Positions 4,192 to 45,176 of a stretch of 64,000 bases of DNA are shown piece after piece. The DNA is from Terriglobales bacterium (GTDB taxonomy: Bacteria; Acidobacteriota; Terriglobia; Terriglobales; Acidobacteriaceae). The first letter of the stretch is position 1, and every line of letters begins with the position of its first letter. The position numbers were made by a program, and so were the translations under genes. The notes beneath the pieces are model-generated. The model was not told where the DNA came from and ran no database searches. It saw nothing but the letters and a program-made list of their open reading frames with translations. The stretch covers positions 71,786 to 135,785 of the forward strand of contig DATGGT010000123.1 of NCBI GenBank assembly GCA_035308395.1, given 5' to 3'.

Positions 4192-4204
4192 GCCGCACGC
4201 CTGC

Positions 4205-4247: not shown

Positions 4248-4311
4248 ACTTCCGTGAATCCAATGATGGTATCGTTGGGGCTCAAATCCGCCCGAAATTC
4301 GCGGGAGACGC

Positions 4312-26601: not shown

Positions 26602-29118
26602 CTACTGAGCCGTTTCGGTGAAGACGGCAGCGTTCGAAACTCCGGCGACAGTGGCGCTAATTGTGACCACACCGGGATGGGCGGGTAGCACATAGACCTG
26701 CGTCGCGATACCGGAATTGTTGGTCACGAACGGATTGTTGTTCAGGAAAGAACCACCCGCGCCGCCATCGTCAAAACTCACAGAGACGCCAGGCGTCGGA
26801 TTACCGTACTGGTCAGTTACGGCCACGGTCAGAGACTGAGGCAGTTGTGTCCCAGCGGGCGCAGACTGATTGTTTCCATTGCCGACTGTCGCAGTTGCAG
26901 GCGGCCCGGGAACAGAATTCTCCGCCAATGTCACATTCTTAAAGCCGGTGGAACTGGCGGTGACGGTGATGGCAGCGACGGTGGTAGGCAGTTGTAATGT
27001 CGTGCTCGCCAATCCGTTGGTACCCGTGACGAAGGAAGCGGGATTCGGAACCGCCCCTTTGTTTGCCACGAAGTTGACCGTGACGCCTGCAACACCGTTC
27101 TTAAGTGCGTCCTGTGCCTGGACGATAATCGGTTTGGGGAGTGTGGTACCAGCAGCCCCACTTTGCTTCGCTCCGCTGTAGTTGACAATCTTGATGGCGG
27201 CGCCGGCCGTAGCCGTGGCAGTCGTGGTAACGCTGCTGAAGCCCGTTCCCGACATCGTAAGAGTATAGGTGCCCGCTTTGTTCGGAACCGTGTAACTGGT
27301 CGAGGCGTTGCCGTTCGAGTCGGTGACGACGGAGGCTGGATTGAACACGCCACCCTTGCCGCCATCGGTGAAGGTTACGGTGGCGCCGACATCAGGCACT
27401 CCGTTGTAAGGGTTCGCCACGTTGATTTGAATGGGCGAAGGCAACCCTGTGCCCACGGTAGCCGTCTGCGTCGCGCCTCCTGTAAGCGTGACGGCGTGGA
27501 ACAGTCCATAGGCCACCAGACTCGTTTGGGTGCCGACATAAACGTGGCCGTCCGCTACGGTCTGGGTCGCGAAGTGACCGAGGGCCGTCAACTTGTCGCG
27601 CCCGCCCACCGCTTGGTTCGTGGTGTACAGCAATTTCATCGAAACCGCATCGAACGCCACGATTTCCGTGCCGCTGATCACCCACAATATTCCGTTGGTG
27701 TTGCCGTTTGCGGAAATGGACGGCGAGTGCGCGCCCGCGTACTTCCCCACCGAGATGGGAGTTCCGAGGAGTCCACCGGACAAGGGAAAGGCCAAGATCG
27801 GCGATGCATCCGGAGCGAAATAGACAGTGTTGTTCCAATAGGCAGGCGAGGCGAACAAAACGTCGTCGGTCCGGGTCGGGACCAAGGTGATTTCCTGCAA
27901 GACCAAACTGTCGGCGGGCGAAAACATGCCCATGTTATCCCGGTTCAGCACGTAGACAACGCCTTGCTTGCCGCCGACAACCAGTTCATGGGGATAAGGG
28001 CCATTCTGATCGGGGAGAACCAGAGCCCCCACAGAACTCAAATCGAGGTCGTGCGAGTTGAGATATGCAACGCTCGCTGGGGTGAAATAATCGGCGAGAG
28101 CTAACTCTGGCGTAAATTTCAGAGCGCTCATGCAGTAAGTCTGCCCGCCGTTCGGTACATCGTACCCGTGCGAGCCCGCCTCGGAAGTTTCCACGTAGAC
28201 GTATCCATCCTCGTCGGCCGCAATGCCGTTGCCTGCTTGCCAAATAGAGGTTATGCCCCAGTCGGGCGAGACATTGAAGGAAGCAAGTTGTGACAGACTG
28301 CCGGGATCGTAGGAAAGGAGCCATCCCGTGTTATCGTCGTCGCAAAAATTTGACCCGAAGCCCATGTAAAGCACACCATTCAGCAGCAACAGACCGGGGC
28401 GGTTCTTTTGGTGGAGACTGTTAAATACAGTGACGTGACCTTTGTTGCTCGTACTGGTCGCCGTAATCAGCACGGGGCTCCCGGGCTGTTCGGCGCCGGT
28501 TGTCATGTCAAGGGCGTGAAGATGGTGACGAACGGTGCCGTTGAGCTGAGTCTTGGCCACGAGATATATCGTGCCAGCCGGACCGGCCGTAGGGTCAATG
28601 ACCGGAGTTGAGACGATCCCTTCCTGAGTAAATCCGGGGCCGCTGCCACAGGGCAGATACTGGCCACTGGCCGTCGTGCCTCCCACGTTGAGCATACTGG
28701 CATACCACAGTTGGGTGCCGTTGGTGGCGTCGACGGCGTACACCGAATCGGCCTGGGTGACGACATACACCACGTTGTGGACTCCCTGCCCAGGGATGTT
28801 TACACCCGGCATGTAGAGCGGTTGCGCCATCACGATGTAGTCCACCGGAAAGGTAAAAAGCTTGCCAAAACCTGCGGAGTTCACATTCGCAGGCGTGAGG
28901 AGAGTTTCACTCGTGTTGGCACCCCTGCGGGTATTGTCCCCGCGACTCGTCAGCATGGGAGTTTGCGCAAGCGAAGAACCTACCAGAGCGAGGCACAGGA
29001 CAAACATGGACGCAGAGAGGTTCAGGAAGCGGGTCGAACCGGATTTCGCACATTCTCGAGATCGCGAAGAAACTCCGGAAATTACACTTGCGTAGGGGAG
29101 TGACAAAAAACGGCGCAT
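26602..29118 (-). CDS. Secreted PQQ-like beta-propeller protein with C-terminal tandem Ig-like (Big_1-type) domains
   Basis: Signal MFVLCLALVGSSLAQ, propeller blades (VYVVTQADSVYAVDATNGTQLW...), then repeated about 95-aa units (GAAGTTLPKPIIVQAQDALKNGVAGVTVNF.., APAGTQLPQSLTVAVTDQYGNPTPGVSVSF..). Confidence 0.75.
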   Translation of the reverse strand: MRRFLSLPYASVISGVSSRSRECAKSGSTRFLNLSASMFVLCLALVGSSLAQTPMLTSRGDNTRRGANTSETLLTPANVNSAGFGKLFTFPVDYIVMAQPLYMPGVNIPGQGVHNVVYVVTQADSVYAVDATNGTQLWYASMLNVGGTTASGQYLPCGSGPGFTQEGIVSTPVIDPTAGPAGTIYLVAKTQLNGTVRHHLHALDMTTGAEQPGSPVLITATSTSNKGHVTVFNSLHQKNRPGLLLLNGVLYMGFGSNFCDDDNTGWLLSYDPGSLSQLASFNVSPDWGITSIWQAGNGIAADEDGYVYVETSEAGSHGYDVPNGGQTYCMSALKFTPELALADYFTPASVAYLNSHDLDLSSVGALVLPDQNGPYPHELVVGGKQGVVYVLNRDNMGMFSPADSLVLQEITLVPTRTDDVLFASPAYWNNTVYFAPDASPILAFPLSGGLLGTPISVGKYAGAHSPSISANGNTNGILWVISGTEIVAFDAVSMKLLYTTNQAVGGRDKLTALGHFATQTVADGHVYVGTQTSLVAYGLFHAVTLTGGATQTATVGTGLPSPIQINVANPYNGVPDVGATVTFTDGGKGGVFNPASVVTDSNGNASTSYTVPNKAGTYTLTMSGTGFSSVTTTATATAGAAIKIVNYSGAKQSGAAGTTLPKPIIVQAQDALKNGVAGVTVNFVANKGAVPNPASFVTGTNGLASTTLQLPTTVAAITVTASSTGFKNVTLAENSVPGPPATATVGNGNNQSAPAGTQLPQSLTVAVTDQYGNPTPGVSVSFDDGGAGGSFLNNNPFVTNNSGIATQVYVLPAHPGVVTISATVAGVSNAAVFTETAQ

Positions 29119-29525
29119 CGACTGGTTCCTCCAAAACGTGCTGCCAGCAAAACAGGTTGCCAGGGTTCGCACTGAGATCAGCACTTGTAACGCCGGGGAA
29201 GGAGTGGGGCGCGAAAACAAGCGATTCATCGAACTGCAACAATCCGTTAACGTTCTTATATACCTCACGCCTTGCTACTACAATGGCTCGGACTGGCTAA
29301 GCGCAAAGTCTTGCATAATTTGCGCTCTTTGTTTCAGCGCGATTTCGAGCAATCCGCTGGCTTTGAGAGCGACTTGCGCTAGTGTGAGATTTGGATTCCC
29401 GTTCCGGTCCCAGGAATCACGACAAGAACAATCGCCGCCGGGTCTGAATATAAAAGCTGCTACAGTAAGAATCTGCACCCCGACGAGCCGGAGATGCAAA
29501 TGAAGTTTCAAGGAGAAGGCTCGCT

Positions 29526-30929
29526 ATGCGCATTGCCGTAGTCGGTTCCGGGTACGTGGGTCTGGTAACGGGTGCTTGTTTCGCCGATCTGGGACACGAC
29601 GTCGTTCTGGTTGATAACGACGAAAAAAAGCTAGCCTCACTCAGAAACGGTGAGGTTCCGATTCACGAAAACTTTCTGCCGGAGTTACTGGCGCGGCACC
29701 GCGGACAGCGCATCAAGTTTTCCGGCGATTTACAGGCAGCCACCCGGGACAGCCAGGTTGTATTCATCGCGGTGGGAACGCCGCAAACCGAAAGCGGCGA
29801 CGCAGATCTCTCATACGTGGAGTCGGTTGCGCGCGAAATTTCTGGCGGCATCGACGACCACAAAGTCGTAGTGGAGAAAAGCACTGTCCCGGTGTATACC
29901 AGCGAATGGATCCGAACGATTATCCAGCGAAACGGCGCGGATCCATCGTTGTTTGATGTCGCCTCCAATCCCGAGTTTCTTCGCGAGGGCACGGGAGTCA
30001 CGGATTTCCTTTATCCCGACCGCATCGTAGTGGGGGTCGAGAACGAGCGCGCTGCGGAAGTAATGAAGGAAGTTTACGGTCCTTTGACGAGCGGTTGGTA
30101 CTACGGCCGCGCGGACGCGATTCCGCGCCCGGAGTCAGCCAATACGCCACCTCGCCTGATTATCACTAGCAGCAAGAGCGCGGAACTGATCAAGCACGCT
30201 TCTAACGCGTTTCTGGCGATGAAGATTTCCTTCGTGAACGCGGTTGCGTCGATCTGCGAATCGGTGGGTGCGAATGTGCAGCAGGTTTGTGACGGAATCG
30301 GCACGGACTCTCGCATCGGTCCGCGATTCATGAACCCGGGCATTGGCTATGGCGGATCTTGTTTCCCGAAAGATCTGATGGCGTTCCGGGCGGTCGCGAA
30401 GGAGAACGGCTATGACTTCCGCTTGCTCGAAGAAGTGATACGCATCAACGAAGATCAGCGGCATCGCTTCCTGCGGAAAGTGCGGAGCGTGCTCTGGACC
30501 CTTCGCGGCAAGCGACTCGGAGTACTGGGACTGGCCTTCAAGGGTGGCACCGACGATATTCGTGAATCTCCGGCATTGCTCCTCGTGCAGGAACTGCTGC
30601 GGGAAGGCTGCAATATTTGTGCCTACGATCCGGCGGCGATGGAGCGGGCGAAAGAGGTTCTAAAATCGGGTGTCGAGTTTGCAGCCGATGCGTATGAAGC
30701 AGCGACCGGCGCAGACGCGCTGTTGATCCTCACCGAGTGGGAAGAATTTGCTGCGCTTGATTTGGAACGCCTCGCTGTCCTCGTGAAATATCCAATCGTC
30801 TTGGATGGGCGGAATTTGTATGATCCCGCAGTGATGGTGGAGCACGGCTTCTCTTATTACAGTGTGGGGCGTCCGGCAGCGTTAGCCAAGGAGGTACCGT
30901 TACGAGTAAGGAAAATGGAGCGCGCCTGA
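29526..30929 (+). CDS. ugd: UDP-glucose 6-dehydrogenase
   Basis: [26 protein letters not shown]..., catalytic region [25 protein letters not shown]. Confidence 0.9.
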
Positions 30930-31894
30930 AGTCTCGACGCGCGCTGGTCACCGGAGGAGCGGGATTTCTAGGATCGCATTTGTGCGATGGCCTGCTTGCC
31001 GAAGGCTACTCAGTGGTGGCCGCCGATAATCTACTTACCGGAAGGCTGGCGAACATCGAACATCTGAGGAACGAGGTTCGATTCGAGTTCATTGAGGCCG
31101 ATGTCTGTCGACCCGGCGAATGGGGCGAACTCGATTACGTTTTTCACTTTGCCAGCCCTGCCAGTCCGGTGGACTATGCCGAACACGGAATCGCAACTCT
31201 CCGCGTGGGATCATACGGAACGTTTGAAGCCCTCGAGACGGCATTGCGCTGCGGCGCGAAGTTCATGATGGCGTCGACGTCGGAGTGCTACGGCGATCCG
31301 GCAGTGCATCCGCAACCGGAGACCTACTGGGGGAATGTGAACCCGATCGGCCCCCGGTCGGTGTATGACGAGGCGAAACGGTTTTCTGAAGCCGTTACCA
31401 TGGCCTATCACCGCTATTTGAAAGTGGACACCCGCATTCTCCGCATCTTCAATACTTACGGGCCCCGCATGCAGATCAACGACGGCCGCGTGATTCCAAA
31501 TTTTATGTGGCAAGCGCTGCGGGGCGAAAACCTGACTGTGTATGGCAACGGGGGGCAGACACGCAGCTTCTGCTACGTGAGTGATGAGGTGGAGGGCATC
31601 CTGCGTCTGGCCCGATCCGCCGAACACGACCCCGTGAACATTGGCAATCCAACCGAGTTCACAATTCTCGAGTGCGCGAAGAAGGTGATTGCGACGACGG
31701 GATCGTCGAGCCAGATCAAATTCGAAGCGCTGCCACAGGATGATCCGAAGCAGCGCCGTCCTGATATTTCAAAAGCGAAGCGCCTGCTGGGATGGGAACC
31801 AAGAATCGACTTGGGGAGCGGGCTAAAACTTTCGCTGGAATATTTTCGGAGAGCCGTCGCGGAGGCTCTGGCTGACAAGGCTCAACCCGCGTAG
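30926..31894 (+). CDS. uxs: UDP-glucuronate decarboxylase (UDP-xylose synthase); proposed CTG start
   Basis: SDR fold with YDEAKR catalytic motif. The tracked ORF starts at TTG 30980, but in-frame upstream codons read [18 protein letters not shown] (Rossmann GxxGxxG), so the start must be upstream. Confidence 0.75.
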
Positions 31895-31939: not shown

Positions 31940-33070
31940 CTAGCGCATTTGCGCGTCGAGCGACGGACCTGCCGCCAACACCGCGAGGAGGCGCATCACC
32001 TCTTCACGCTCGACATCATCACGGAACACAAACCGCACTCCCATGCCGAATCCTGGATGCGTGGCCAGAACTTGGCCTCTGATGCGCAACTTTGTATCAG
32101 CATGTCGAACCAGAATCTCAACTCCGGCCTGCCCCGTCAGCGGAGACGGCATCTCGACATAACAGCCACCTTCGCTGATGTCAGACAATGTGCAGCGATT
32201 CGGGACGCTCGTGCCCAGGCGATAGACTTCGGCTCCAAGCTTGCACGCCATGCGCAGTTCGCCACGTCGATTGCTGGGATTGGTGACAAGCGGAGACTCT
32301 TTACCTTCGGGTATCGCGCCGCGTCGAACGTCGGACGCCACCCCCGCGGACTTGCTGGCTGGCACCTGCGCCGGCACACCTGCCGCCGGAGTGACATTAG
32401 TATTATTCTGCTGGAGCCAAGTCTGAATGAGCCGCCGTGAAGACTGGGGCACATCGACAAAGCGAATTCCCGTGCGCCCGCTTGAGTCCTGCCATGCAAC
32501 CTCACCCGACAGGCGAACCAGGGGCTGCTGGCCCGGTAGCGCAAACTCAAAATATACTTTGCATGACGAAGGCAGACGATTGGCGGTCTGGAGTGATGTT
32601 CCGCCATCGCTGAGGTCAGTCAACAGCGCGTTCACTTCCGGAGCCCCCGGATACGCAACGTTCGCCTTGGAATTAAGCGGAGTGCGGGGCGCCCGGCGGC
32701 GTTCTCGGCGCATCAGGCCGCGAGCTGCGCGCAAACTGATCCGCGTGCGCTCGGCAGAGAGCGGACGGTACAAAACGAAATTCGCACCCAAGCCAAAGAC
32801 CGGACGCGCGTTGAACTCCCCGTCGACAATCGCGATCAACATGCTGGCCCGGTTCCGTGCCGATTGTCGGAGCCGTGCCAGGAATTTCTCAGAGTCCTCG
32901 TCGGCGCGATAATCAAGAACAATCACATCAAAGCGCTGGCTCTCGAGCAACTGTAGTCCGCCGGAGACCGATGGTGTATGCTCCGCGGCCATCCCCAGTT
33001 CTGACAACACTTCCGTCAGCAGGGTCGACGACCCCTGATCCGGACACACCACGAGAGCGCGTAAGTCCAT
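31940..33070 (-). CDS. Degenerate receiver (REC) plus two PilZ domains
   Basis: REC-like N-terminus (ALVVCPDQ.., VIVLDY, LYRP). PilZ 1: RRERRRAPR..DLSDGG. PilZ 2: RRGELR..DISEGG. Both keep RxxxR and DxSxxG. Confidence 0.8.
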   Translation of the reverse strand: MDLRALVVCPDQGSSTLLTEVLSELGMAAEHTPSVSGGLQLLESQRFDVIVLDYRADEDSEKFLARLRQSARNRASMLIAIVDGEFNARPVFGLGANFVLYRPLSAERTRISLRAARGLMRRERRRAPRTPLNSKANVAYPGAPEVNALLTDLSDGGTSLQTANRLPSSCKVYFEFALPGQQPLVRLSGEVAWQDSSGRTGIRFVDVPQSSRRLIQTWLQQNNTNVTPAAGVPAQVPASKSAGVASDVRRGAIPEGKESPLVTNPSNRRGELRMACKLGAEVYRLGTSVPNRCTLSDISEGGCYVEMPSPLTGQAGVEILVRHADTKLRIRGQVLATHPGFGMGVRFVFRDDVEREEVMRLLAVLAAGPSLDAQMR

Positions 33071-33566: not shown

Positions 33567-34247
33567 ATGAGAAGGCCGGTAAGAAATTCGCGGCAACGCA
33601 GGCATCGAGCGAGCGGCTTCAGCTTGATCGAAATGATGAGCGTGGTGGCGATTGGGATTGTCGTGACCGCAGTCTCCTTCATGACTCTGGTTCCGGTCAT
33701 GAACCAGCAACGCGTGAACAATGCATACAACATCACGCTGGCCGCGATGCGTCAGGCGCACGACAACGCAATGTCGCAACGCACATCCTACTCGGTAACG
33801 TTTTCTAACACGGTGACGCCGAACACCATCACCGTGGCACCCACACTCACCGGATTCGCGGGCGCGCAGAGTGCCGTGACTTATCAATTGCCGAACGGCG
33901 TCACATTTTACGCGGCCTCGGCTCTTTCTTCGGTCACGGCTCCAGACAGCGGTGCGGGGGCAAGCTTTGGCACTGGCACGCACGCGATCGATTTTGGCTA
34001 CACCGCGAACGGTGTAGGCACGGGCGGGCAAACGGTCGTTTACTTCTGTCCTGATGGTTCGGCGCAAGACGCCGAGGGCGGGGCAGGCAACTGCGCGGGC
34101 AGCTGGGATGACGGCGTTGTCTATATCGCACGTTCCACAGACCTGTTGAGTTCAAGGGCGATTTCGCTTTGGGGTGCTACCGGGCGAGTTCGAGGATGGC
34201 GTCTCTATAGCACCGGTGCATCAACCTATCAATGGAAACGGCAATGA
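33567..34247 (+). CDS. GspH/FimT-like minor pilin (prepilin-type N-terminal methylation domain)
   Basis: MRRPVRNSRQRRHRASG/FSLIEMMSVVAIGIVVTAV: class III signal peptide with G-1, F+1, E+5. Confidence 0.75.
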   Translation: MRRPVRNSRQRRHRASGFSLIEMMSVVAIGIVVTAVSFMTLVPVMNQQRVNNAYNITLAAMRQAHDNAMSQRTSYSVTFSNTVTPNTITVAPTLTGFAGAQSAVTYQLPNGVTFYAASALSSVTAPDSGAGASFGTGTHAIDFGYTANGVGTGGQTVVYFCPDGSAQDAEGGAGNCAGSWDDGVVYIARSTDLLSSRAISLWGATGRVRGWRLYSTGASTYQWKRQ

Positions 34248-34885
34248 AGATGAGGGCGACCGCTATGGCTGGATTACAGATCAGACGAAGTGCACTTCCT
34301 CGGGACCGAAGAACCGCGGAAGGCGGTTTTTCGCTGGTTGAAGTCTTGATCTCGATGGCTGTGCTAACGGTGGGGATGGTAAGTCTGCTCGGCGTCTTTG
34401 GGTTGGCAATGGCTGCCACAGAGACATCGCAGCAGGACATGATCGCCAAGCAACTTGCCAACGAATCGTACGAGAGTATCGTGACCGCGAGCAACTCGAC
34501 TCAGATCAACTGGGACGACATCAACAACGTGGGCTCGACGAACTGTCCGGACACCGGCGCGAGCAGTTGCGGAATCTTCCTGACGGGCACGCAGCCGATC
34601 AACAATGCGGGAGTCGACGGAATTTACGGAACGGCCGACGACGCCTCTGCTGGCGGACAAACTCTGCAGGACCCCGGGCCAGACGGAGTGTTCCTGACCG
34701 TGGACGACACATTCATCCCCTTGACTAACTACCAGCGCTCGATTGCGATCGCGCCGCTCTATGACGTGAACTCGGTCCTGATCTCGAACCTGCGCAGCGT
34801 GACGATCACAATGCAGTACACGACTCCTCAGAGCAAGCAACAGAAGACTTACATTCTGAATTCCTACATCTCAGAGTTCCAGTAA
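34244..34885 (+). CDS. PilV/GspI-like minor pilin
   Basis: ...RRTAEGG/FSLVEVLISMAVLTVGMVSLLGVF. ATG 34244 overlaps the upstream stop as ATGA. Confidence 0.7.
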   Translation: MKMRATAMAGLQIRRSALPRDRRTAEGGFSLVEVLISMAVLTVGMVSLLGVFGLAMAATETSQQDMIAKQLANESYESIVTASNSTQINWDDINNVGSTNCPDTGASSCGIFLTGTQPINNAGVDGIYGTADDASAGGQTLQDPGPDGVFLTVDDTFIPLTNYQRSIAIAPLYDVNSVLISNLRSVTITMQYTTPQSKQQKTYILNSYISEFQ

Positions 34886-34895
34886 AAAGGGAGTT

Positions 34896-36083
34896 ATGGG
34901 CGACCGCTTAAAAACACGCGAGAGTGGATTCAGCTTGCTGGAGATGATGATCTCTGTGGCTCTGGGCACGGTTGTGCTTGGCGCCGCGGTGCAGATCTAC
35001 AGCAAGGGAGTTGGGGCGACCTGGACGGTTTCGCAGCGAGCCGAGTTGCAGCAGGATTTTCGCGCCGCTTCCAACATGTTAACCAAGGATCTCAGCGAAG
35101 CCGGAGCGGGCCTGGGCAACAACGTCGCCATTGCGCTGCCGAGTGGAAGCACTCCGCGTTTCGGTTGCGACCAGACCAATACCTGCTACTTGAACGGCGT
35201 GGCGGGGACTTATCCTCTGCAGAGCGGCACACCCTATCTTTACGGGCTCATTCCGGGATACAACCTGGGACCGATTCTCAACGCCACCCAGGGAGCGACC
35301 GATACTGTCACGACGATATACACGGACAACAACTTCTATTTGAACTGTTATGCGGCAACCGTCACATCCGCGGGCGTGGTGACCTTTGCGCCAATCGTCA
35401 CGACTCCGGTGGCAACAGCTTGGCCTCCGCCGGGTTGCTTGCCGAACAGCAGCGTGACCTCGCCTCAAGCCGTAAACGATGCAGTGGTCGGGTTGACGCC
35501 CGGCGATCTGGTCCTGATGAACCTGAATAACTCCCCTATTGTGGGCGAAGTGACGGGCGCGGTCACGGCAACGGGAACCAACACTTACACCGTCCCCTTC
35601 GCCAAGGCCAGTTCTACGGTCGATCCTCTGAAGATGAACCAGACGCCCGCCGGTAGCGGCTTGAACGCTGCGCCGGTGGGTGCGACCGGGGCAAATCCTC
35701 AGCGCCTTCTGGTGATCACTTATTACATCGACAATACCGTGGCCCCGCCGCGATTAATGCGTCAGGTGAGCGGACATTCGCCGATTCCGGTCGCGGAAAA
35801 TGTGGCTTACATGAAATTCAGCTATGACCTCTTCAACGACGCCACCAGTTCGCCAGCGGTGAACTGCAGCAATCCAGGCGCCGCCACCGATGGCTGCAAT
35901 ACCGCCGGCGCGTCGTCTGGTCTTCTTCCGAACCAGATCACCAAGATCAATATTCTGAACATGGCGATGAACAGCACACTGATGGGCGCCCAGTACGGCA
36001 CAGGCACCGGTTATCAGCGAATGGATTTGCAAACGTCGGTAAGCGCCCGGAACCTGACCTACGCCAACAACTATCCCAATTAA
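34896..36083 (+). CDS. PilW/GspJ-like minor pilin (enlarged, 395 aa)
   Basis: MGDRLKTRESG/FSLLEMMISVALGTVVLGAAVQIY..RAELQQDFRAASNMLTKDLSEAG. Confidence 0.7.
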   Translation: MGDRLKTRESGFSLLEMMISVALGTVVLGAAVQIYSKGVGATWTVSQRAELQQDFRAASNMLTKDLSEAGAGLGNNVAIALPSGSTPRFGCDQTNTCYLNGVAGTYPLQSGTPYLYGLIPGYNLGPILNATQGATDTVTTIYTDNNFYLNCYAATVTSAGVVTFAPIVTTPVATAWPPPGCLPNSSVTSPQAVNDAVVGLTPGDLVLMNLNNSPIVGEVTGAVTATGTNTYTVPFAKASSTVDPLKMNQTPAGSGLNAAPVGATGANPQRLLVITYYIDNTVAPPRLMRQVSGHSPIPVAENVAYMKFSYDLFNDATSSPAVNCSNPGAATDGCNTAGASSGLLPNQITKINILNMAMNSTLMGAQYGTGTGYQRMDLQTSVSARNLTYANNYPN

Positions 36084-36162
36084 GGGTGGAGGGGTAGCAG
36101 AGGCACACAAGATCGAGATGAGGAACGATGCAATGGGGAACACGACCATGGGGAGTGACGGT

Positions 36163-39100
36163 ATGAAGAAAACCAGATTGCGCATCACCAGGCTGAACGT
36201 CAAAGGATTCACGCTGATTGCGTCCTTGCTGATGCTGTTGCTGATGTCGGGGATGGCGATCGGTCTGCTGATGATGGTCAACACCGAAGGCAAGGTGGGG
36301 GGAAGCGACCTGCAAAATAACGTCGCCTATCACGCCGCCGAAGGTGGAATCGAAAAGATGTACTCCGACCTCTCGGCGGTGTTTAATAACGCGCAAGCCC
36401 CGACTGCCGCCCAAATCTGCGCGGCGAGCGCCGCGGCCAACCAGCCAACGATGCCCGGAGTCACTTGGACCCAATATTCGATCATGCCCGGCTCGGCGCA
36501 AACTTCGACTTGCCCGACAACTCTGTCGACGACCTGGGGACAGATTACCGCCGGACCGAACCAGGGTTTGTATGCGCAGGTCATTCCCGTGAACATGCTG
36601 GCTACCGCGTCCCTTACGGGCGGACAGGAAGTCACCATGATCCGGCAGACGCAGGTCGCTTTGATTCCGGTATTCCAGTACGGAATGTTTTGCGAAAATG
36701 ATTGCTCAATCTTTCCTGGCGGCGGTATGACTTTCAATGGCCCCATCCATAGCAACGGTGATTTTTACCCGTACGTCGGATCGGGTGCCAACTTGACGTT
36801 TCAAGCTAAGGTGTCTGCGTTCGGCAACATTATTCGAACCGTGTTGCCCAATCTCAATTCTTCCAGCGCCAGAACTGGTAACGTCTATGTTCCGACTGCG
36901 AATAGCGCGACCGCTTGCAGCAATTCCAGCCCGAGCGCTGCGCCATCCACGGCAGCCGGAAACACGTGTACGAGTCTTGCCACGGTTGGTACCACCAATC
37001 CATGGGGAGACGGCAGCCTTCAGGGCGCTGGGGGTAATCCGGCGCAATCGAGCTACAGCAGTGTTTGGAACAACTATTCCAACACCACTCTGAACGACAT
37101 GATGATCAACGGGAACTATGGCAGCAAGACAACCAAAGGAACCGGAGCCAAAAAACTGTCTATGCCGTTCGTCAACGGCAGCAACTTCCCGTATGAAGTG
37201 ATTCGTCGCCCCAAGGGCACGGAGTCGGCTTCAACACTCCTGGGTCAATCGCGCGAATATAACATGGCCCAGATTCGCGTCCTGCTGAGCGACGATCCCG
37301 CGGAGTTCAAGAACGGTACCGGTGCGACGGATCCCGACAACGTCCGACTGGCAAACGTTGCGCAGAATTCGACCGTGGCAGGCCAGTGGGGTGTCACGAT
37401 ACCCTCGGGTAATTACAGCTCCGCGTTCGGGTCGCCGACATCCGGCACTTATAACCTCTATTTCGCGTCGGCTTCCAATGGAGTTCCCATTCCGAATGCC
37501 ACCGCTTCCACTTGCTCGGGCGAGCCTTGCTTGACGGCCGACGATTGGCCTTCTCCACCGGTGACGTGGACGAACGCCATGGCAACGGCCGCCGGAATTG
37601 CATGGATTAACCCACCTGTGCCAAGCACGGCGCCAATCTACTGGAATAACGGACCCAGCCCGACGGTTTATCTTTGTCCGCCAAACGTGACCTTCACCGC
37701 CTCGCCCTCGCCGGCTCTTCCTTCGAACTGTCCTGCGGGAGCCTATCCATACTATTCCCCGCCAAATCCAACTCTTCCCCTCGTTTCCGGGGCACTCACG
37801 CCCTACAATTCTGCATTCGACGATTCATGGAGCACCCTCGATGGGTGGCTGCGTGTGGAGTATCTGAACAACTCCGGCAACTGGGTTGCAGTAACCAACG
37901 AGTGGCTGCAATTGGGATTTGCGCGCGGTGTAACCGCACCCACTGCCAGCGTAGCAGGTCAGCCCGCCGGTGGAACTCCAAACCCCATCAATCCAAAGGC
38001 AATCTTGCTGCTTCAGGAACCAGCCGACCGCTCCACCAACGCCACTCTGATGGCTGAACCGGCGGCCACCGGTGCGATTTCTACCGGAACTCCGCCAAGT
38101 TGCACGGCTTGGACCTCGGCAGCACATACTATCTGCACCACTTGGGCTGCAGGCAATCCGCCCTTGCTTGTCTCCGATGCTGGAGCCGGCGGCGAGTGGG
38201 CATTCGGCATTACCCCCAGTGCTCCGGCGGCCGCGACAACTCCGCAGAGCCTCACGGAATACAACTGGTATCCAATCAACTTTTACGACTCGCGTGAAGG
38301 CGAGCCTCGCGATATCGATTGGTCAGGGACAACCCTGGGCGTAACGGACAACAGTTGCACAGCCAACGGCGTGATGAACGCGGTTGAGATCGATGTGGGC
38401 AACCTTGAGCAGTGGCTGTTAGGTAATACCGGCACAAGCGGAACGCTGGTGAACTCTTCGACCCAGAACGGGTACATCCTGTATTTCTCGGACCGTCGTG
38501 GCATGTTGCCGAGCAAAAACGCTGTCTCGTCTAACGCGGCCAACACAAAAACCGGAGACTCGGGGTTGGAAGACACCGTAAACTCCGGCAGCACTGCAGG
38601 GACCACCGACGGCGCGCTCGAGACAACCATGGCTGGCCACCCCAACTCTCCTGAGGACGACAACCAGAATGGCTTGCTCGACAACTGGGGCGCCTACAAC
38701 CTGGGAATGGGCTTCTATGGCACGGTGTCCAGCTCGACTCAAAACCTGAATACGAAAATCACAAGCACTGCCGTGCCAAATCCCTACGGCACCGTGGCGG
38801 CCAATGGAGGCGACCGAATCGCTCTTTGCGGCCGCACCGCCCGCAAGAATTGGGTCAGCGGCGCGCGACACGTTTTGAAACTGGTGGATGCGTCCCTAGG
38901 CAATGTGCCGTTGAGCAACACGCCGATCGTTTACAACGGCGTGACCTACAATGGCGGATTCACCGTAGCCTCGGAAAACCCGGTATATCTCCAGGGCGAT
39001 TACAATTCGAATGGTACCGACACCGCATGGAGCGCCACGCCGGTGGATCAGGCTGGAATGGCGGCATCTGCCGTGCTCGCCGATTCGGTTACTCTTCTTT

Positions 39101-39549
39101 CGAACGCCTGGGACGATCGAATCAGCATGGTCGGAGTTCCCGGCAACACTTCACCGACGCATCTGGGAAATCGCACTGCTGTCACGACCTCGTACAGGCT
39201 CGCGATTGCAGCCGGAAAAAACATGACCTTCGCGTCGCCCTCCTGGGCCACTGCAGGTAAAGATGACGTCGGCACCGACGGCGGCATTCACAACTTCCTT
39301 CACTTGCTGGAAAACTGGGGCGGAACCACCACAAACTACAAGGGATCAATGGCGAGCCTGTACTACTCGACCTACGCCACCGGCTTCTACAAGTGTTGCA
39401 ATGCTGTTTACAGCAACGGTACGCGTAACTTCTCTTTTGACGCGGACTTCAAGAATCCGGCCGGCTTGCCGCCCGGAACACCCATGTTCCGCGACGTGGA
39501 GAGCTTGGGCTATCGTCAGGTGTACGCGACGCGCTTAACCGGGCAATAG
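36163..39549 (+). CDS. Giant PilX/GspK-like pilus-tip protein (about 1130 aa)
   Basis: MKKTRLRITRLNVKG/FTLIASLLMLLLMSGMAIGLLMMVNTEGKVGGSDLQNNVAYHAAEGGIE: PilX_N-like, lacks Glu+5 as PilX/GspK do. GGAG lies 7 nt before ATG 36163; upstream in-frame ATGs reach back to 36118. Confidence 0.7.
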   Translation: MKKTRLRITRLNVKGFTLIASLLMLLLMSGMAIGLLMMVNTEGKVGGSDLQNNVAYHAAEGGIEKMYSDLSAVFNNAQAPTAAQICAASAAANQPTMPGVTWTQYSIMPGSAQTSTCPTTLSTTWGQITAGPNQGLYAQVIPVNMLATASLTGGQEVTMIRQTQVALIPVFQYGMFCENDCSIFPGGGMTFNGPIHSNGDFYPYVGSGANLTFQAKVSAFGNIIRTVLPNLNSSSARTGNVYVPTANSATACSNSSPSAAPSTAAGNTCTSLATVGTTNPWGDGSLQGAGGNPAQSSYSSVWNNYSNTTLNDMMINGNYGSKTTKGTGAKKLSMPFVNGSNFPYEVIRRPKGTESASTLLGQSREYNMAQIRVLLSDDPAEFKNGTGATDPDNVRLANVAQNSTVAGQWGVTIPSGNYSSAFGSPTSGTYNLYFASASNGVPIPNATASTCSGEPCLTADDWPSPPVTWTNAMATAAGIAWINPPVPSTAPIYWNNGPSPTVYLCPPNVTFTASPSPALPSNCPAGAYPYYSPPNPTLPLVSGALTPYNSAFDDSWSTLDGWLRVEYLNNSGNWVAVTNEWLQLGFARGVTAPTASVAGQPAGGTPNPINPKAILLLQEPADRSTNATLMAEPAATGAISTGTPPSCTAWTSAAHTICTTWAAGNPPLLVSDAGAGGEWAFGITPSAPAAATTPQSLTEYNWYPINFYDSREGEPRDIDWSGTTLGVTDNSCTANGVMNAVEIDVGNLEQWLLGNTGTSGTLVNSSTQNGYILYFSDRRGMLPSKNAVSSNAANTKTGDSGLEDTVNSGSTAGTTDGALETTMAGHPNSPEDDNQNGLLDNWGAYNLGMGFYGTVSSSTQNLNTKITSTAVPNPYGTVAANGGDRIALCGRTARKNWVSGARHVLKLVDASLGNVPLSNTPIVYNGVTYNGGFTVASENPVYLQGDYNSNGTDTAWSATPVDQAGMAASAVLADSVTLLSNAWDDRISMVGVPGNTSPTHLGNRTAVTTSYRLAIAAGKNMTFASPSWATAGKDDVGTDGGIHNFLHLLENWGGTTTNYKGSMASLYYSTYATGFYKCCNAVYSNGTRNFSFDADFKNPAGLPPGTPMFRDVESLGYRQVYATRLTGQ

Positions 39550-39593: not shown

Positions 39594-39625
39594 AACCCCG
39601 ATCCGCAAGGATCGGGGTTTTTCTT
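39594..39625 (+). terminator. Rho-independent terminator of the minor-pilin operon
   Basis: AACCCCGATCC-gcaa-GGATCGGGGTT followed by TTTCTT. Confidence 0.75.
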
Positions 39626-39683: not shown

Positions 39684-40979
39684 ATGAGTACTCAACAGTT
39701 GAACCGAGCTGACAATCGTGGGGCGAGAGGCTTGTTGGTGGTTCTGACAATATTCTCGTTAGGCCTATTTCTTATCCCGGCCTTCATCATCCGGCCGTTC
39801 ACCCATCAATCGGCCATCGGATTGCGCATTGCACTCTTCGTCAAGTGGATTGCGCCGACACTCACGCTGCTCGCCTTGTTGGGAGTCCTTGCGATCGCCT
39901 GGTCGCTCTGGCAACGGTCGTCCTGGTTGTTACGCAGCGGTATCATCACTTCCCTGCTGCTGTGTCTGGCGTCGACAGTGATGGTACAGCAGAACTACTT
40001 CGAATGGATGTTCAATCCGATCAAAGCTGCGGGATTCGTCGCACCCGGCGATTCCCACCTTGACGACAAAGAAATGGTGATGACCGTGAAGATCGGGCCG
40101 GAAGCGCGTGCGTACCCGATCGTGCAGATGGCCTACCATCACATCCTCAATGACACCGTGGCCGGCGAGCCCATCGTCGTCACCTATTGAACGCTCTGTC
40201 ACACCGGTCTGGTGTGGAAGAGAACAGCGCAGGGACGGGAACTCCATTTCTATCTCGCGGGGATCAACAATCAGAATTTCCTCATGCGCGACCGCGAAAC
40301 GGGCTCGTGGTGGCAACAGATCACAGGCCGCGCCATCTCCGGCAAACTCGCCGGTACCAGCCTCGAGTCGATGCCCAACGACGAGTTAACGTTCGGACTA
40401 TGGAAAGCGGAGTTGTCGCAAGAACACGCCCTGGTTTTGGCGCCAGTTGCCGGACACGACAAAGACTACGACAAGGGATGGGAAGCAGAAACGGAGAAGT
40501 ATCCAGTGCCCCTAAGTTTTCCCGGGCAAGGATTGAAAGATCGCGACGTGATCCTGGGAGTTCAGTTGGGTGGGCAGGCTCGCGCCTTCCCGGTAACAAA
40601 GGTTCGCGGCCAGACTCCGGTCGAAGACAAGATCTCTGGAGTTCCCCTTGTGATCGTAACTGCGCCCGACGGCGTATCCATGCGCATGTTTCGCTCGCGA
40701 TGGAACGGATCCGATATCGAGCTTTATCGCGATACGGAGACCGACGGACAATCCACTGACGAGCATAAAGCCGATGGTCAAAGCCCTGCTGGTCAAAACA
40801 CTGGTGGTCAAAGCAAAGACTTACGACTGCTCGATTCGCTCGGGAACACCTGGAACTTCAGCGGGTGCGCAACTAGCGGTCCTGCAACGGGCCAGTGTCT
40901 AGAGAAAATTAATTACGTGAAGGACTATTGGTTCGACTGGAAGAACTACAACCCGAAGACGACTGTCTACAGTCATTAG
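39684..40979 (+). CDS. DUF3179-family membrane protein with in-frame TGA at codon 169: candidate selenoprotein (UxxC), otherwise a nonsense pseudogene
   Basis: ORFs 39684..40190 and 40212..40979 share a frame. Readthrough gives ...GEPIVVTY-[TGA]-TLCHTGLVWKR..NFLMRDRETGSWWQQITG..DYWFDWKNYNP, one colinear DUF3179 protein. Confidence 0.6.
40200..40216 (+). promoter_or_regulatory. SECIS-like hairpin 9 nt downstream of TGA 40188-40190
   Basis: CACACC-GGUCU-GGUGUG: perfect 6-bp stem with a GGUCU apical loop, as in E. coli fdhF SECIS (as I recall it). Confidence 0.5.
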
Positions 40980-42763: not shown

Positions 42764-44914
42764 TTATTGCAGGCCGTTTTGGGTAAATTTGTACGCGATG
42801 TTTGCCCGCGATGCGGTGAAATAGATACTCGCCGCCTGCGAGGCAGTACTGTAGTTGTCGACGACGATTCCGTTTGGACCGCCGTTGATCGTCGCCTTGG
42901 TGACCGTGGTGTCACTGCTGCGCGCGACGACGCAACCGTCGGTGAAACCGTTGCCCGGCGCGGTGCAGTCCTGGTTCAGACCGAAGAAGAAGAAATCGGT
43001 GCCCCCGGTTACCCCGCCAGTATCGGAGGCGTTGGTGTAGTCCGCGTTATTGAAATTCGCGGTGAATCCACTGTAGATGGGGCCAGTGCCAATCAGGCTT
43101 GTCACAATTACAACTTGGCCGTTTAGAAAACTCTCCGCCGTACCTTGCAGAGATATCTGTTGGCCGACCTTAAGATCGCTGGCGTTTGTCGTCACCGTCA
43201 GAACGTTGGTCGCGACGGATGTAGCCGTAATGGCGTCATTCGGAGACACCGTGCCGGTGTCCGCAGCATTGACGTAGTTCGCCGTAGTGAAGCTCGCCGT
43301 GAACCCCGTGAAAATGGGAGCGGTGCCCACCAGACCGGTCACGGTTACAACCTGGCCATTCAGAAAACTCTCGGCCGTACCTTGGATGGTCAACTGCTCT
43401 CCCACCGTAAGATCGGTATTGTTCGCCGTCACCGTGAGAATGTTGGACGCGACCGCGGTTGCTGTGATGACGTCGGTGGCTTCGACAAAGGGATTGTTGA
43501 ACTCGGTCAATCCCGTGCAGCGAGCGGCGGTAGACGTGACGATTTGTTGTGAGAACGAAGGGGTCGAATTCATGATTCGCCCGGCATTGAAGCCAAAGGC
43601 GTACTGCCATGGAGATTGATCGGCAGCACCCGTACCGCAAACGCGAATGACTCCTGCCGATGTGTTGTTGTAGTAGTCGTTGCTCGGGGCAGGCTCGTAA
43701 AGGCTCATTGCCGTACCGATGTGCGCACCTATGCCGATACGCGCCCTGGTCAGCAGATTCAAACTATTGGTATCGGCCTCAACCAGCACAGCGGATGTGC
43801 CATCGTCCGCGCTAGTCACGAAAGTAGTACCGTTCGTGATATCGACGATTGGGGGACTGACTACACCGGGGCTCGGCGCCCCGCCTCCCACCAAGAGTGA
43901 TGTTGAGAGAGTGCCGGTAAGGGTATTGACCTGATAGAGGTTTCCGTCCGTGCTCCCCACCAGCAGCGCGCGCCGGTCGATATCGAATACTGGAGGAGTG
44001 AGTTTTTGTGCGCCGACCTGGACTGGCCACGGTGCTCCCGCAAGTGCCGGCGTTCCGTTAAAGACACCAGTAATCTTGTAAATCAACCCCGTGTCGTCTG
44101 CCACGTAGACGACGTCGTCGCTGTAATCGATCCAGGGAGCGGATGTTGTAATCGTCGCAGTCGAAGAGATGGTTAGCGATGTCATTTCTCCGGCGGTCGG
44201 CACGACAGAAACGCTCGGGGTGCCTCCGTCCGCGGCGTTCCATGTCAGGACATGGAAAATGGATGAAGGCGTCGCGCCAGTCACGCTCTCGACAAAGCCA
44301 ATCTTCTTTCCGTCTAACGACAGGATCGGCGAAGTCAATATCTTGCCGCCGGTCACCGTGCTGATGTTATAGCCAAAAAGGGGTGATGGAGCCGTGCCGC
44401 ACAGCCCAACCGGAGCTGTGCCGGAATAGAGATTGTTGAAACCGACGAGATTGGCGTTGCCCCCTCCGACACCGGGGGCCTCGGGTGCCGACAATCCGAA
44501 CGCAGCGTAGTCATTCGTGCAATCCGGCGGAGCCGTAGGGTCCGCGAAAGAGTATTTTACGGGGAACATGTGCGCGAAAATCCTGCCCCCCAAAACGACA
44601 TTCCAATCGCGGTAGAGACTGGGTCTCGGTTTCGGCTTAATGGATACTTTCGATGGCGTCACGGAGGAATTCGAGGTGGAATTCGAAGGAGCCGGGAAGC
44701 GCTGCATCAACTGCTGGCGGATGCGCGGTTCGCGATCGGCCAGGCCGGGGTGCTTGGCTAGTGCGTCGCGGCTGAATACGAGATGGCTCTGCGACCAGTC
44801 TTGCGGAAATCCGATATGCTTCGGAGCAGTCGCTACCTGTGCGCACAAACCGGGCACGAGCGAGAAGAAGAACGCAGTCCACGCCGCAAACACACCGCAC
44901 CGCTGCCTTAGCAT
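42764..44914 (-). CDS. Large secreted beta-propeller-like protein with C-terminal 79-aa tandem repeats
   Basis: Signal MLRQRCGVFAAWTAFFFSLVPGLCAQ. Blade-like segments (VYVADDTGLIYKI, LLVGSTDGNLYQV, TFVTSADDGTSAVLV), then two colinear repeats. Confidence 0.7.
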   Translation of the reverse strand: MLRQRCGVFAAWTAFFFSLVPGLCAQVATAPKHIGFPQDWSQSHLVFSRDALAKHPGLADREPRIRQQLMQRFPAPSNSTSNSSVTPSKVSIKPKPRPSLYRDWNVVLGGRIFAHMFPVKYSFADPTAPPDCTNDYAAFGLSAPEAPGVGGGNANLVGFNNLYSGTAPVGLCGTAPSPLFGYNISTVTGGKILTSPILSLDGKKIGFVESVTGATPSSIFHVLTWNAADGGTPSVSVVPTAGEMTSLTISSTATITTSAPWIDYSDDVVYVADDTGLIYKITGVFNGTPALAGAPWPVQVGAQKLTPPVFDIDRRALLVGSTDGNLYQVNTLTGTLSTSLLVGGGAPSPGVVSPPIVDITNGTTFVTSADDGTSAVLVEADTNSLNLLTRARIGIGAHIGTAMSLYEPAPSNDYYNNTSAGVIRVCGTGAADQSPWQYAFGFNAGRIMNSTPSFSQQIVTSTAARCTGLTEFNNPFVEATDVITATAVASNILTVTANNTDLTVGEQLTIQGTAESFLNGQVVTVTGLVGTAPIFTGFTASFTTANYVNAADTGTVSPNDAITATSVATNVLTVTTNASDLKVGQQISLQGTAESFLNGQVVIVTSLIGTGPIYSGFTANFNNADYTNASDTGGVTGGTDFFFFGLNQDCTAPGNGFTDGCVVARSSDTTVTKATINGGPNGIVVDNYSTASQAASIYFTASRANIAYKFTQNGLQ
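43010..43468 (-). repeat. Intragenic tandem duplication, 2 x about 79 codons
   Basis: ITATAVASNILTVTANNTDLTVGEQLTIQGTAESFLNGQVVTVTGLVGTAPIFTGFTASF... versus ITATSVATNVLTVTTNASDLKVGQQISLQGTAESFLNGQVVIVTSLIGTGPIYSGFTANF... Confidence 0.85.
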
Positions 44915-45176
44915 CACAGCTGCCTCCGATTGCTTTGGATTCACGCCATTGTAGCCGTTTTCTCGCCTACAAGGGATAGGTGATTTTAAGCGGTGAGACC
45001 TTCTGTTGATTGCACTTTCCCCTGGAATGTTCCCCGAGGGTAACCTTCCATTTTTTCGGTGGTTCGACGTCGACAGCGGCTTGGCGCCAATCCCCTCTGA
45101 CTTCAAGTGCCGATTTCCGATTCTTAACGTCGTGTGGAACAATGAGAGGCCAGTGGAGGCTCTGCTCACATCCGCG

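Follow-up and report, generated by a model that had tools for sequence, protein, structure and literature searches.

A four-gene minor-pilin operon of Acidobacteriota ending in a giant, Glu5-less protein of the probable PilX/GspK class

The window analysed in this study, a stretch of DNA of 64,000 nucleotides (64 kb) from a soil acidobacterium, carries at positions 33567–39549 four co-oriented + strand open reading frames (ORFs), here called g1 to g4, each with a prepilin-type N-terminus. An earlier note on this DNA had proposed four consecutive genes with class III signals, and indeed, when all six frames of the 64 kb were searched for the pattern G-[FMYL]-[ST]-[LF]-x-[EA] with a hydrophobic stretch after it, exactly four sites emerged, at the N-termini of these consecutive ORFs. 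The first three products have Glu at position +5: g1 (33567–34247; 226 aa; RASG|FSLIE), which is GspH/FimU-like by position, g2 (34244–34885; 213 aa; EGG|FSLVE), which is PilV/GspI-like, and the large g3 (34896–36083; 395 aa; ESG|FSLLE), which is PilW/GspJ-like by position. The last gene, g4 (36163–39549), encodes a protein with Ala at +5. The stop codon of g1 and the start codon of g2 overlap in an ATGA at 34244–34247, and the operon is ended by an intrinsic terminator on the + strand (39594–39625), a stem-loop (39594–39619) with an 11-bp stem, 7 G-C pairs and a 4-nt loop, directly followed by a T run; the coupling of the first two genes and the strong terminator were thus both recovered where the earlier note had placed them. 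No pilB/C/D/M-Q gene, gsp gene or major pilin gene was found in the 64-kb window by the Pfam scan of its ORFs and the six-frame motif scan. Directly upstream of the operon lie genes for a UDP-glucose dehydrogenase, a UDP-glucuronate decarboxylase-type epimerase and a PilZ-domain protein. This arrangement is retained in relatives at 52% identity; it is missing around distant family members, and the sugar-nucleotide and PilZ genes are therefore outside the conserved unit.

The g1, g2 and g3 proteins carry the class III signal peptide of type IV pilins (G|FS-L-[ILV]-E), and all three match Pfam N_methyl above its cut-off (22.8 bits for g1, against a cut-off of 21.2, and 28.2 bits for g3). Beyond this N-terminal signature, g1 matched the GspH model TIGR01708 weakly (1.9e-4), and Pfam GspH was matched by 4 of 23 g1 orthologues (best 0.0022). 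The g2 protein matched TIGR02523 type_IV_pilV (4.1e-11; 43.5 bits, under the 52.2 cut-off) better than GspI (3.4e-4). For g3, a match to NF007848 (prepilin peptidase-dependent protein; 1.3e-7) was obtained, and Pfam PilW was matched by 5 of its 24 orthologues (best 0.0041). The best class matches of the operon are to PilV, PilW and PilX_N rather than to GspI, GspJ and GspK. When family profiles of g1, g2 and g3 were compared with the PDB, solved pilins were matched via the generic N-terminal helix only. The putative assignment of the three proteins to the H, I and J classes is made by position, from gene order, size and weak HMM matches only; gene order and sizes fit the H-I-J-K / FimU-PilV-W-X ordering that had been suggested. 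Two other gene sets were compared with the operon. In the Verru_Chthon four-gene cassette (TIGR02596/98/99 plus protein A), proteins B, C and D were matched by g1–g3 far under the cut-offs (E 3e-4 to 0.03) and at the N-terminus only, and g4 did not match protein A at E≤1. The type II secretion pseudopilin set (GspH-I-J-K) fitted little better: GspK gave no match, GspI only that at 3.4e-4, and gsp genes were absent from the window and from the other loci examined.

The longest ORF of g4 extends from a first ATG at 36118 to the stop at 39549, and the most plausible start is the ATG at 36163, which has a GGGGAG 7 nt upstream. From this start, g4 is a 1128-aa precursor, in agreement with the giant size (~1130 aa) first reported. 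It consists of a 15-aa basic leader, MKKTRLRITRLNVKG (36163–36207), with prepilin-peptidase cleavage predicted from the sequence after Gly (VKG|FTLIA), and of a 1113-aa mature protein of 116 kDa and pI 4.8. Leaders of g4 homologues are 7–15 aa long, basic, and end in G. Not one of the 93 family members with a readable N-terminus has Glu at +5, the position being occupied by T, A, S or others, so that the loss of Glu+5 described for the fourth subunit extends to the family. Two features place g4 in the cap class: (i) a prepilin N-terminus lacking Glu+5 (KG|FTLIA) and (ii) its location as the last gene of an H-I-J-K / FimU-PilV-PilW-PilX set, for which the class matches of g1–g3 are weak. The match of g4 to Pfam PilX_N (PF14341) is under the cut-off (0.013; 15.9 bits vs 25.5), and Pfam T2SSK (PF03934) gave no match; many g4 homologues are annotated with PF14341 or named PilX in JGI or NCBI ('PilX N-terminal domain-containing'). 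The residues S/T/N/G/A/P make up 57.5% of g4. The richness in these residues described previously therefore holds as composition; g4 is not a low-complexity protein with a disordered extension, because its entire length is conserved and predicted to fold.

The organisation of g4 is described below with residues numbered in a 1138-aa frame starting at 36133. In the better AlphaFold2 (AF2) model, model 2 (pLDDT 80.7; pTM 0.87), an N-terminal helix of 60 residues is followed by four long strands, then by a large mostly-beta body and last by a strand of 13 residues. The helix (aa 26–86) and the four long strands (aa 110–179) form a predicted pilin-like domain (36208–36669) with pLDDT values of 83–95, and strands of at least 10 residues occur in the model only in this N-terminal pilin sheet and at the C-terminus. 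An N block follows (aa ~176–265; 36658–36927; IPVFQ.G.F..D....PG..M.F.GP.H.NGD.Y), common to PilX_N proteins of Thermus and cyanobacteria and to HpsA; in BLASTP, g4 matched Thermus oshimai WP_015065324 over aa 24–265 (6e-17) and Picosynechococcus WP_065715577 over aa 177–234 (2e-9). The middle (aa ~266–941; 36928–38955), of ~675 residues, is lineage-specific, conserved within Acidobacteriota and predicted to be folded, its Cys residues occurring in pairs with matching frequencies; it has no match in Pfam, NCBIfam or the PDB. It contains an EF-hand-like loop, E-D-x-N-x-N-G-x-L-D-x-[YFW]-G (aa 841–853; 38653–38691), whose positions are kept in most of 409 family members: D842 in 386, N844 in 350 (D in a further 34), N846 in 323 (D in 38), G847 in 289, D850 in 302 (E in 53) and G853 in 397.

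The C block (aa 942–1134; 38956–39534) is common to HpsA-like proteins of Cyanobacteriota and Deinococcota. With tblastn, it was found on plasmids of Thermus, Deinococcus and Picosynechococcus (3e-12 to 3e-5), and BLASTP gave 2e-15 with an 812-aa cyanobacterial homologue and 9e-11 with Thermus WP_015065324. The C block shows the highest pairwise identity in every divergence class, and the last ~100 residues of g4 are the best-conserved part of the operon. They include the extreme C-terminal strand, MFRDVESLGYRQV (aa 1118–1130; 39484–39522), a confidently predicted 13-residue beta-strand next to a near-invariant LPPGTPMFRD, which is a candidate 'C-beta' acting in cis. As conserved N and C blocks flank a variable middle, a cap pilin with an insertion describes g4 better than a PilX–adhesin fusion does. 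We compared g4 with its counterpart in the nearest genome: the last ~100 residues are encoded with 96.6% identity at the nucleotide level, and the body is at most 73% identical or unalignable. A general hypervariability of the body was rejected, since its rate of divergence over all locus pairs is close to that of g1–g3; at depth it is more conserved than g1–g3, and the sharp drop is confined to some close pairs.

The last strand may pair with the pilin sheet of g4 itself; a mean-field DCA of 398 sequences, aimed at contacts between the two, was dominated by gap and two-clade artefacts and gave no usable signal. Foldseek searches with two g4 models against the PDB, and with the better model against BFVD, gave no match at E≤0.001 and no significant likeness to GspK, PilX, ComZ or any beta-solenoid. 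The ComZ structure (6QVI) ranked first with model 1 (E 0.46) and 17th with model 2 (E 3.3). A PDB sequence search with the full-length g4 family profile gave no match even at E 10. With no Foldseek match at E≤0.001, no fold of the beta-solenoid, PilY1-propeller, VWA or tailspike type could be confirmed or named for g4.

The g4 family comprises 4299 clusters at 50% identity, and all its members with an organism name belong to Acidobacteriota; relatives are carried by at least 586 species genomes. Across the family, g4 is nearly always preceded by the same three pilin genes. The unit of three pilin genes and a giant gene is present, with gene order and sizes kept, in most of 80 related genomes (orthologues of g1, g2 and g3 in 76, 75 and 78 related loci, respectively) and is also found in distant members with unrelated surrounding genes. 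The conserved entity is thus the four-gene unit itself, as it recurs amid unrelated neighbours, and the operon looks like a standard feature of Acidobacteriota. The same four-gene layout, with N and C blocks homologous to those of g4 in the last gene, is also present in Thermus oshimai and Picosynechococcus. The lengths of homologous proteins range from about 580 to about 1200 residues, with HpsA reaching about 1500.

Pfam scans of 40 ORFs of the window (10 at E≤1 and 30 at E≤0.001) turned up no PilY1-like gene, as the earlier note had proposed. Two flanking propeller-like proteins (an 888-aa PQQ/Big_1 protein and an 806-aa protein) were considered for this role and rejected: they are without a PilY1 signature and are absent near distant operons. 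Signatures of PilY1, VWA or beta-propeller modules were likewise absent from the g4 module in Pfam, NCBIfam, PDB sequence and Foldseek searches, and the PilY1/PilC beta-propeller domain (PF05567; PDB 3HX6) gave no Pfam match in g4 at E≤1. g4 nevertheless resembles the PilX plus PilY1 (PilK plus PilC) pair of type IVa pili in its operon position and in the role of the Glu5-less subunit, and the mature protein is about the size of PilY1. Its loop, DxNxNGxxD, is close to the PilY1 calcium-site consensus Dx[DN]xDGxxD (PMC8833165), although position 5 is mostly N and not D and the motif is generic. g4 differs in being one polypeptide where type IVa pili have two, in having a class III signal whereas PilY1 has a Sec signal, and in the absence of the PilY1/PilC beta-propeller domain (Pfam, Foldseek). 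The proposal of a single polypeptide thus stands across a large family in so far as the Glu5-less subunit is joined to a very large conserved module, with the amendment that the joining is better seen as an insertion.

Taking these observations together, we consider it likely that the four genes encode the priming and tip complex of a type IV filament, with g4 as an apical cap bearing an inserted tip module and an in-cis strand. In such a complex, g1 (FimU/GspH-like) would link to the fibre as an adapter, the core pair would consist of g2 (PilV/GspI-like) and g3 (PilW/GspJ-like), and g4 would be the apical PilX/PilK/GspK-class subunit; it would cap the filament because, lacking Glu+5, nothing could be added above it. 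With no separate PilY1 docked, g4 would carry an inserted module of ~940 residues, placed after its pilin beta-sheet and ahead of its extreme C-terminus. The conserved C-terminal strand would then return and complete the pilin sheet, the kind of in-cis beta-strand addition known from GspK, CpaL and ComZ, and this strand would license binding of the g2–g3 pair. On the tip, the module may be the plug and an adhesin or sensor; disulfides and a calcium-binding loop would probably stabilise it. The filament itself would most likely be a type IVa pilus. The bulk that PilY1 contributes in trans most likely comes in cis from g4 here, and so, probably, does the C-terminal strand. More tentatively, the middle of g4 may be an undescribed fold serving as a substrate-specific adhesin or surface sensor of Acidobacteriota pili, with close strains swapping it as a cassette and the assembly interfaces, namely the N-terminal pilin domain and the C-terminal strand, staying constant. 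On this tentative reading, Acidobacteria would join cyanobacteria and Deinococcota in a large PilY1-free world where the cap pilin is the tip machine.

The earlier note had taken this architecture as not well characterised; it is in fact of a recently described kind, for which ComZ, CpaL and cyanobacterial PilX/HpsA are precedents. Among the closest known systems is HpsA (cyanobacterial PilX-EPS; NF038301), which is likewise a giant PilX-type protein accompanied by three pseudopilin or minor-pilin genes, and whose model is matched by 14 of 15 diverse g4 family members. Two short collinear stretches only are shared: aa 176–212 with profile positions 285–321 (E 0.0018) and aa 1052–1110 with 1354–1415 (6e-10). 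As the score of 40.2 bits is to be set against the 400-bit equivalog cut-off, g4 is a distant homologue of HpsA and not its orthologue. HpsA has nothing that corresponds to the ~675-residue middle, the phyla differ (Acidobacteriota vs Cyanobacteriota), and there are no hps glycosyltransferases adjacent to g4. Cyanobacterial PilX/HpsA-like proteins were proposed to substitute for PilY1 in a phylum without it (bioRxiv 10.64898/2026.02.12.705559); a beta-solenoid is reported for them, whereas Foldseek gave no significant beta-solenoid match for g4. The PilX_N proteins of Thermus and Deinococcus plasmids (e.g., WP_015065324; 631 aa) have a four-gene layout identical to that of g4 and share its N (6e-17) and C (9e-11) blocks; they are uncharacterised, about half as long, and have a middle of about 175 residues, compared to about 675.

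Two further precedents are architectural. In ComZ of Thermus (PMC6561018), a large beta-solenoid interrupts a pilin fold just ahead of its last strand. Like g4 as modelled, ComZ joins a pilin-like domain to a very large beta-rich module that precedes the last strand; both are encoded in a minor-pilin operon, and ComZ is argued to be the tip subunit beside small minor pilins. ComZ is however about half the size of g4 and binds DNA; the two have no sequence similarity, and their structural similarity is not significant. CpaL of Caulobacter has a minor-pilin domain, an adhesin middle and its own C-terminal strand, and C-beta addition in cis or in trans is a published framework (PMC13533445). In CpaL/TadG and GspK the cap subunit gives its terminal beta-strand in cis, as g4 would do; in CpaL, the tip bears the protein's middle, about 470 residues long. 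Glu+5 is missing in CpaL, GspK and g4, but CpaL and GspK belong to other filament classes (T4c and T2SS, respectively) and have no detectable homology to g4.

It is unlikely, though worth weighing, that g1–g4 form a short pseudopilus of a T2SS-like or polysaccharide-export system instead of tipping a long, retractile pilus. In such a system, g4 might bind the exported substrate or act as a plug, either periplasmic or outer. Cyanobacterial Hps proteins were reportedly first proposed as a pseudopilus of the secretion or polysaccharide-export type. The distant homology of g4 to HpsA, a named hormogonium polysaccharide protein, the matches of g1 to GspH models and the upstream UDP-glucose dehydrogenase, epimerase and PilZ genes, kept in relatives at 52% identity, are consistent with such a system. 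However, these neighbours are missing near distant family members, gspD/E/F/G/L/M genes are lacking in the vicinity, the best class matches are PilV, PilW and PilX_N, and HpsA-like proteins have been reassigned to the priming complex of a motility pilus (bioRxiv 10.64898/2026.02.12.705559). We regard as very improbable that g4 would serve a dedicated competence pilus as its DNA-binding tip receptor, in the manner of ComZ from Thermus thermophilus. Thermus and Deinococcus are naturally transformable genera, g4 homologues end four-gene pilin operons in both, the operon follows the logic of the Thermus pilA1-3/comZ region, and ComZ was the top, although non-significant, Foldseek match of the first g4 model. 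Against this, ComZ has no sequence similarity to g4 or to its Thermus plasmid homologues, PDB searches with the latter gave no link to ComZ, mature g4 is acidic, no competence genes were seen among the scanned ORFs of the window, and a literature search found no pilus or minor-pilin study in Acidobacteria. Equally improbable is a non-filament g4, in which the N-terminus would be the uncleaved anchor of a large periplasmic or surface beta-rich protein (e.g., glycan-binding or glycan-cleaving): the sub-threshold PilX_N match, the lack of a pilin-family or adhesin-family match in the body and the many short strands of the model, which fit carbohydrate-active beta-helix folds, are outweighed by the family-wide conservation of the G|F-T-L-I-x leader motif and strict absence of Glu+5, by the persistent linkage to three Glu5-bearing pilins in changing neighbourhoods, and by the absence of a detected catalytic family.

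The current picture of type IV filaments is left unchanged by g4. Few groups of soil bacteria are as abundant as the Acidobacteria. If g4 is the tip-module cap proposed here, its family would add a third phylum to an emerging rule by which the cap pilin of filaments that lack PilY1 has the plug or adhesin built in. The natural size variants of g4 could be used to test the model of beta-strand addition, and the conserved calcium-type loop and the middle swapped between two close genomes are candidate determinants of surface specificity. Elsewhere in the window, a split DUF3179 was considered as a frameshift and rejected, because the same split is conserved in a relative.

Four consecutive genes on the + strand of the window, g1 (33567-34247), g2 (34244-34885), g3 (34896-36083) and g4 (longest ORF from 36118, stop at 39549), encode proteins whose N-termini consist of a short basic leader followed by a Gly, a Phe and a hydrophobic helix. 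The first three carry G/FS-L-[ILV]-E (the slash marks the predicted prepilin peptidase cleavage site) and thus a Glu at position +5 of the mature pilin, and all three match Pfam N_methyl above the cut-off; g4 carries KG/FTLIA, with Ala at +5. Searching all six frames of the 64 kb showed the prepilin-type motif at these four sites only, so the clustering is not due to chance. The g1 stop overlaps the g2 start in an ATGA (34244-34247), and a terminator-type hairpin (11-bp G+C-rich stem) with a trailing T run occupies 39594-39625. For g4, translation most plausibly starts at the ATG at 36163, which has GGGGAG 7 nt upstream and yields a 1128-aa precursor and a mature protein of 1113 aa (116 kDa, pI 4.8) with 16 Cys and 57.5% S/T/N/G/A/P. 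The earlier note, which had described four class III N-termini with the last lacking Glu+5, ATGA coupling, a strong terminator and a ~1130-aa, S/T/N/G/A/P-rich last product, was thus accurate on the anatomy of the operon. The assignment of g1-g3 to pilin classes is weakly supported by profile matches: GspH models match g1 and four of its orthologues, type_IV_pilV matches g2 at 4e-11, more strongly than GspI, and Pfam PilW matches five g3 orthologues, the alignment of g1-g3 profiles to solved pilins being confined to the N-terminal helix.

A word-indexed search recovered more than 950 relatives of g4, many named 'Tfp pilus assembly protein PilX' by JGI; the top 120, which originate in Terriglobales metagenome-assembled genomes, share 52-70% identity over their full length (1040-1240 aa). 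When 1.84 billion representative sequences were searched with a profile, 4299 clusters passed E≤1e-3; 2877 of them passed E≤1e-10 and 859 passed E≤1e-30. The C-terminal ~420 residues are retained most widely. Relatives occur in at least 586 species-level genomes, the best 80 all being Acidobacteriota, and a search from a distant member (35% identity) returned Acidobacteriota wherever the organism was named. The Glu5-less N-terminus and the operon are family-wide properties: the N-terminus could be read as G-[FIVM]-[TA]-L-[IV]-x in 93 of the 106 long representatives, with Glu at +5 in none of the 93, and most of 80 related loci have three Glu+5 genes upstream (mature sizes ~200, ~180 and ~385 aa), with BLAST orthologues of g1 in 76, g2 in 75 and g3 in 78. 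The four-gene unit is kept in distant members with entirely different surrounding genes. No pilB/C/M-Q or gsp genes were found in the neighbourhoods examined, the window included; operons of the fimU-pilVWXY1 type usually lack these genes nearby. A reading in which g4 is an anchored protein outside any filament is unlikely, the N-terminus without Glu+5 and the linkage to three Glu+5 pilins being kept across the family. Some genomes possess two sets of the unit or two giant paralogues in tandem; two giant PilX-like genes lie close together in loci L085 (3969-12511, 817 and 836 aa) and L087 (4812-12406, 826 and 801 aa), which suggests alternative tip modules for one machine in some Acidobacteriota.

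The extension of g4 was searched for known modules. No Pfam domain (PilY1, VWA, beta-propeller or adhesin) was detected at E≤1, a PDB sequence search with the family profile gave no match, and Foldseek of the confident g4 model against PDB and BFVD returned nothing at E≤0.001. The claim that the extension lacks a PilY1, VWA, beta-propeller or described adhesin domain withstood these searches. ComZ (6QVI) ranked first in Foldseek with a weaker first model (E 0.46) and 17th with the better one (E 3.3), values that do not indicate similarity to g4. A ComZ-like DNA receptor is an unlikely reading of g4.

Relatives also exist outside the phylum. Residues 176-212 and 1052-1110 of g4 (1138-aa numbering starting at 36133) align collinearly with positions 285-321 and 1354-1415 of the NCBIfam HpsA profile. 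Of 15 diverse family members, 14 match the C-terminal stretch. With 40 bits in total, g4 scores far below the cut-off of 400 bits. The last 440 residues, used as a tblastn query against plasmids, gave seven matches, in Thermus, Deinococcus and Picosynechococcus. In the three records inspected (Thermus oshimai pTHEOS01, 2061-5636; a Picosynechococcus plasmid, 1155-6522; and a T. brockianus plasmid, where the copy adjoins an IS1634 transposase), the homologue, an HpsA-like PilX_N protein of 578-812 aa matching HpsA at 1e-14 to 7e-24, comes last, preceded by three prepilin-type genes in two of the records and by one in the other. The 631-aa protein of T. oshimai, annotated as 'pilus assembly PilX N-terminal domain-containing protein', matches g4 residues 24-265 (6e-17) and 942-1119 (9e-11), and the 812-aa cyanobacterial protein matches 177-234 (2e-9) and 942-1129 (2e-15). 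From these two-block alignments, g4 consists of a conserved N block, a lineage-specific middle and a conserved C block; the N block is predicted to comprise the helix, the pilin sheet and the first turns of the body, and the middle some 675 residues, with no Pfam or NCBIfam match. The two Thermus plasmid proteins have no sequence similarity to ComZ, which suggests that this genus has a further class of large tip pilin, unrelated to ComZ.

PilK/PilX/GspK-class subunits without Glu+5 are filament caps, whose sheet must be completed by a terminal beta-strand before the PilI-PilJ (PilV-PilW) pair binds; this strand comes in trans from PilY1/PilC, or in cis in GspK, CpaL, Thermus ComZ and Vibrio competence PilX, where sheet and strand are often separated by a large insertion (PMC13533445). 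In ComZ, a beta-solenoid interrupts the pilin fold ahead of the last strand (PMC6561018). For cyanobacteria, a phylum without PilY1, PilX proteins (an expanded HpsA-like subfamily among them) have been suggested to take the place of the PilY1 plug (bioRxiv 10.64898/2026.02.12.705559). In the AlphaFold2 model of g4 (109-sequence alignment; mean pLDDT 80.7, pTM 0.87), a helix of 60 residues precedes four long strands (110-179); there are also many short strands (3-8 residues), and the last strand, of 13 residues, spans 1118-1130. As the only other strands of at least 10 residues belong to the N-terminal sheet, pairing of the last strand with this sheet is plausible. Conservation over the entire length, together with the confident model, indicates that the S/T/N/G/A/P-rich residues form a structured body rather than a disordered tail. 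The operon is best explained as an acidobacterial version of a cap pilin with a built-in tip module: g4 would cap the filament at its tip, its ~940-residue body would act as plug and adhesin or sensor, and its conserved C-terminus would provide the licensing strand in cis. A rival of low probability, that g1-g4 form an Hps-like secretion pseudopilus, would draw on the distant homology to HpsA. The note's proposal that a single polypeptide unites the cap with a large tip module and has no PilY1 domain was right in substance; its novelty was overstated, this kind of cap pilin (HpsA/ComZ/CpaL) being already described, and g4 is a new, very large, uncharacterised acidobacterial member of it.

Seven Cys pairs have matching frequencies in the family (96/127, 187/191, 262/279, 461/466, 515/533, 742/899 and 1088/1089), a putative disulfide pattern expected of an exported protein. 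A loop, E-D-x-N-x-N-G-x-L-D-x-[YFW]-G (residues 841-853; window 38653-38691), is kept in most of 409 family members and fits an EF-hand-like pattern; the calcium motif of PilY1 is Dx[DN]xDGxxD (PMC8833165). The motif being generic, this candidate calcium-type loop is a lead, not proof.

The g4 gene was compared with that of the nearest available genome, an Acidobacteriaceae metagenome-assembled genome (L004, CAVSBD010000004.1). Nucleotide identity is 87-94% in neighbouring genes and 86% at the g4 start; within the divergent body (window 36733-39432), residues ~200-700 are not alignable and residues 701-1100 are 68-73% identical, and identity reaches 96.6% over the last 38 codons (last 117 nt). 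The pattern resembles occasional swapping (allelic replacement) of a presumably exposed body between constant assembly interfaces. Milder drops occur in a few other close genome pairs, with no general rule; with all locus pairs considered, the body does not in general evolve faster than g1-g3, and conservation peaks in the last ~100 residues whatever the divergence class. In L004, g3 and the g4 start seem interrupted by frameshifts (truncated ORF and frame change, 4660-4977 and ~5878-6132), probably long-read assembly errors and not pseudogenes.

A gene transcribed divergently from the operon (31940-33070, -) encodes a protein with a degenerate receiver domain and two PilZ domains; it is adjoined by UDP-glucose dehydrogenase (29526-30929, +) and UDP-glucuronate decarboxylase-type epimerase (30980-31894, +) genes; further upstream lies a large GGDEF-EAL protein with Reg_prop/Y_Y_Y domains (8527-12192, +). 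Relatives at 52% identity share the synteny of the PilZ and sugar-nucleotide genes, which are missing around distant operons; a connection between c-di-GMP and the pilus is possible. At some distance on either side of the operon lie genes for two large, propeller-like and probably secreted proteins, of 888 aa (26602-29268, -; weak PQQ-propeller matches and Big_1 Ig-like domains) and 806 aa (42764-45184, -; a faint beta-propeller match only, and two tandem repeats of ~75 aa at nt ~43016-43453). Neither has a PilY1 signature or was found alongside distant operons. Finally, DUF3179 is split over adjacent ORFs (39684-40190 and 40212-40979, +; profile 19-64 and 74-292). The related locus L001 has the same split (167 and 242 aa), so that a sequencing frameshift was rejected in favour of a conserved two-gene arrangement.
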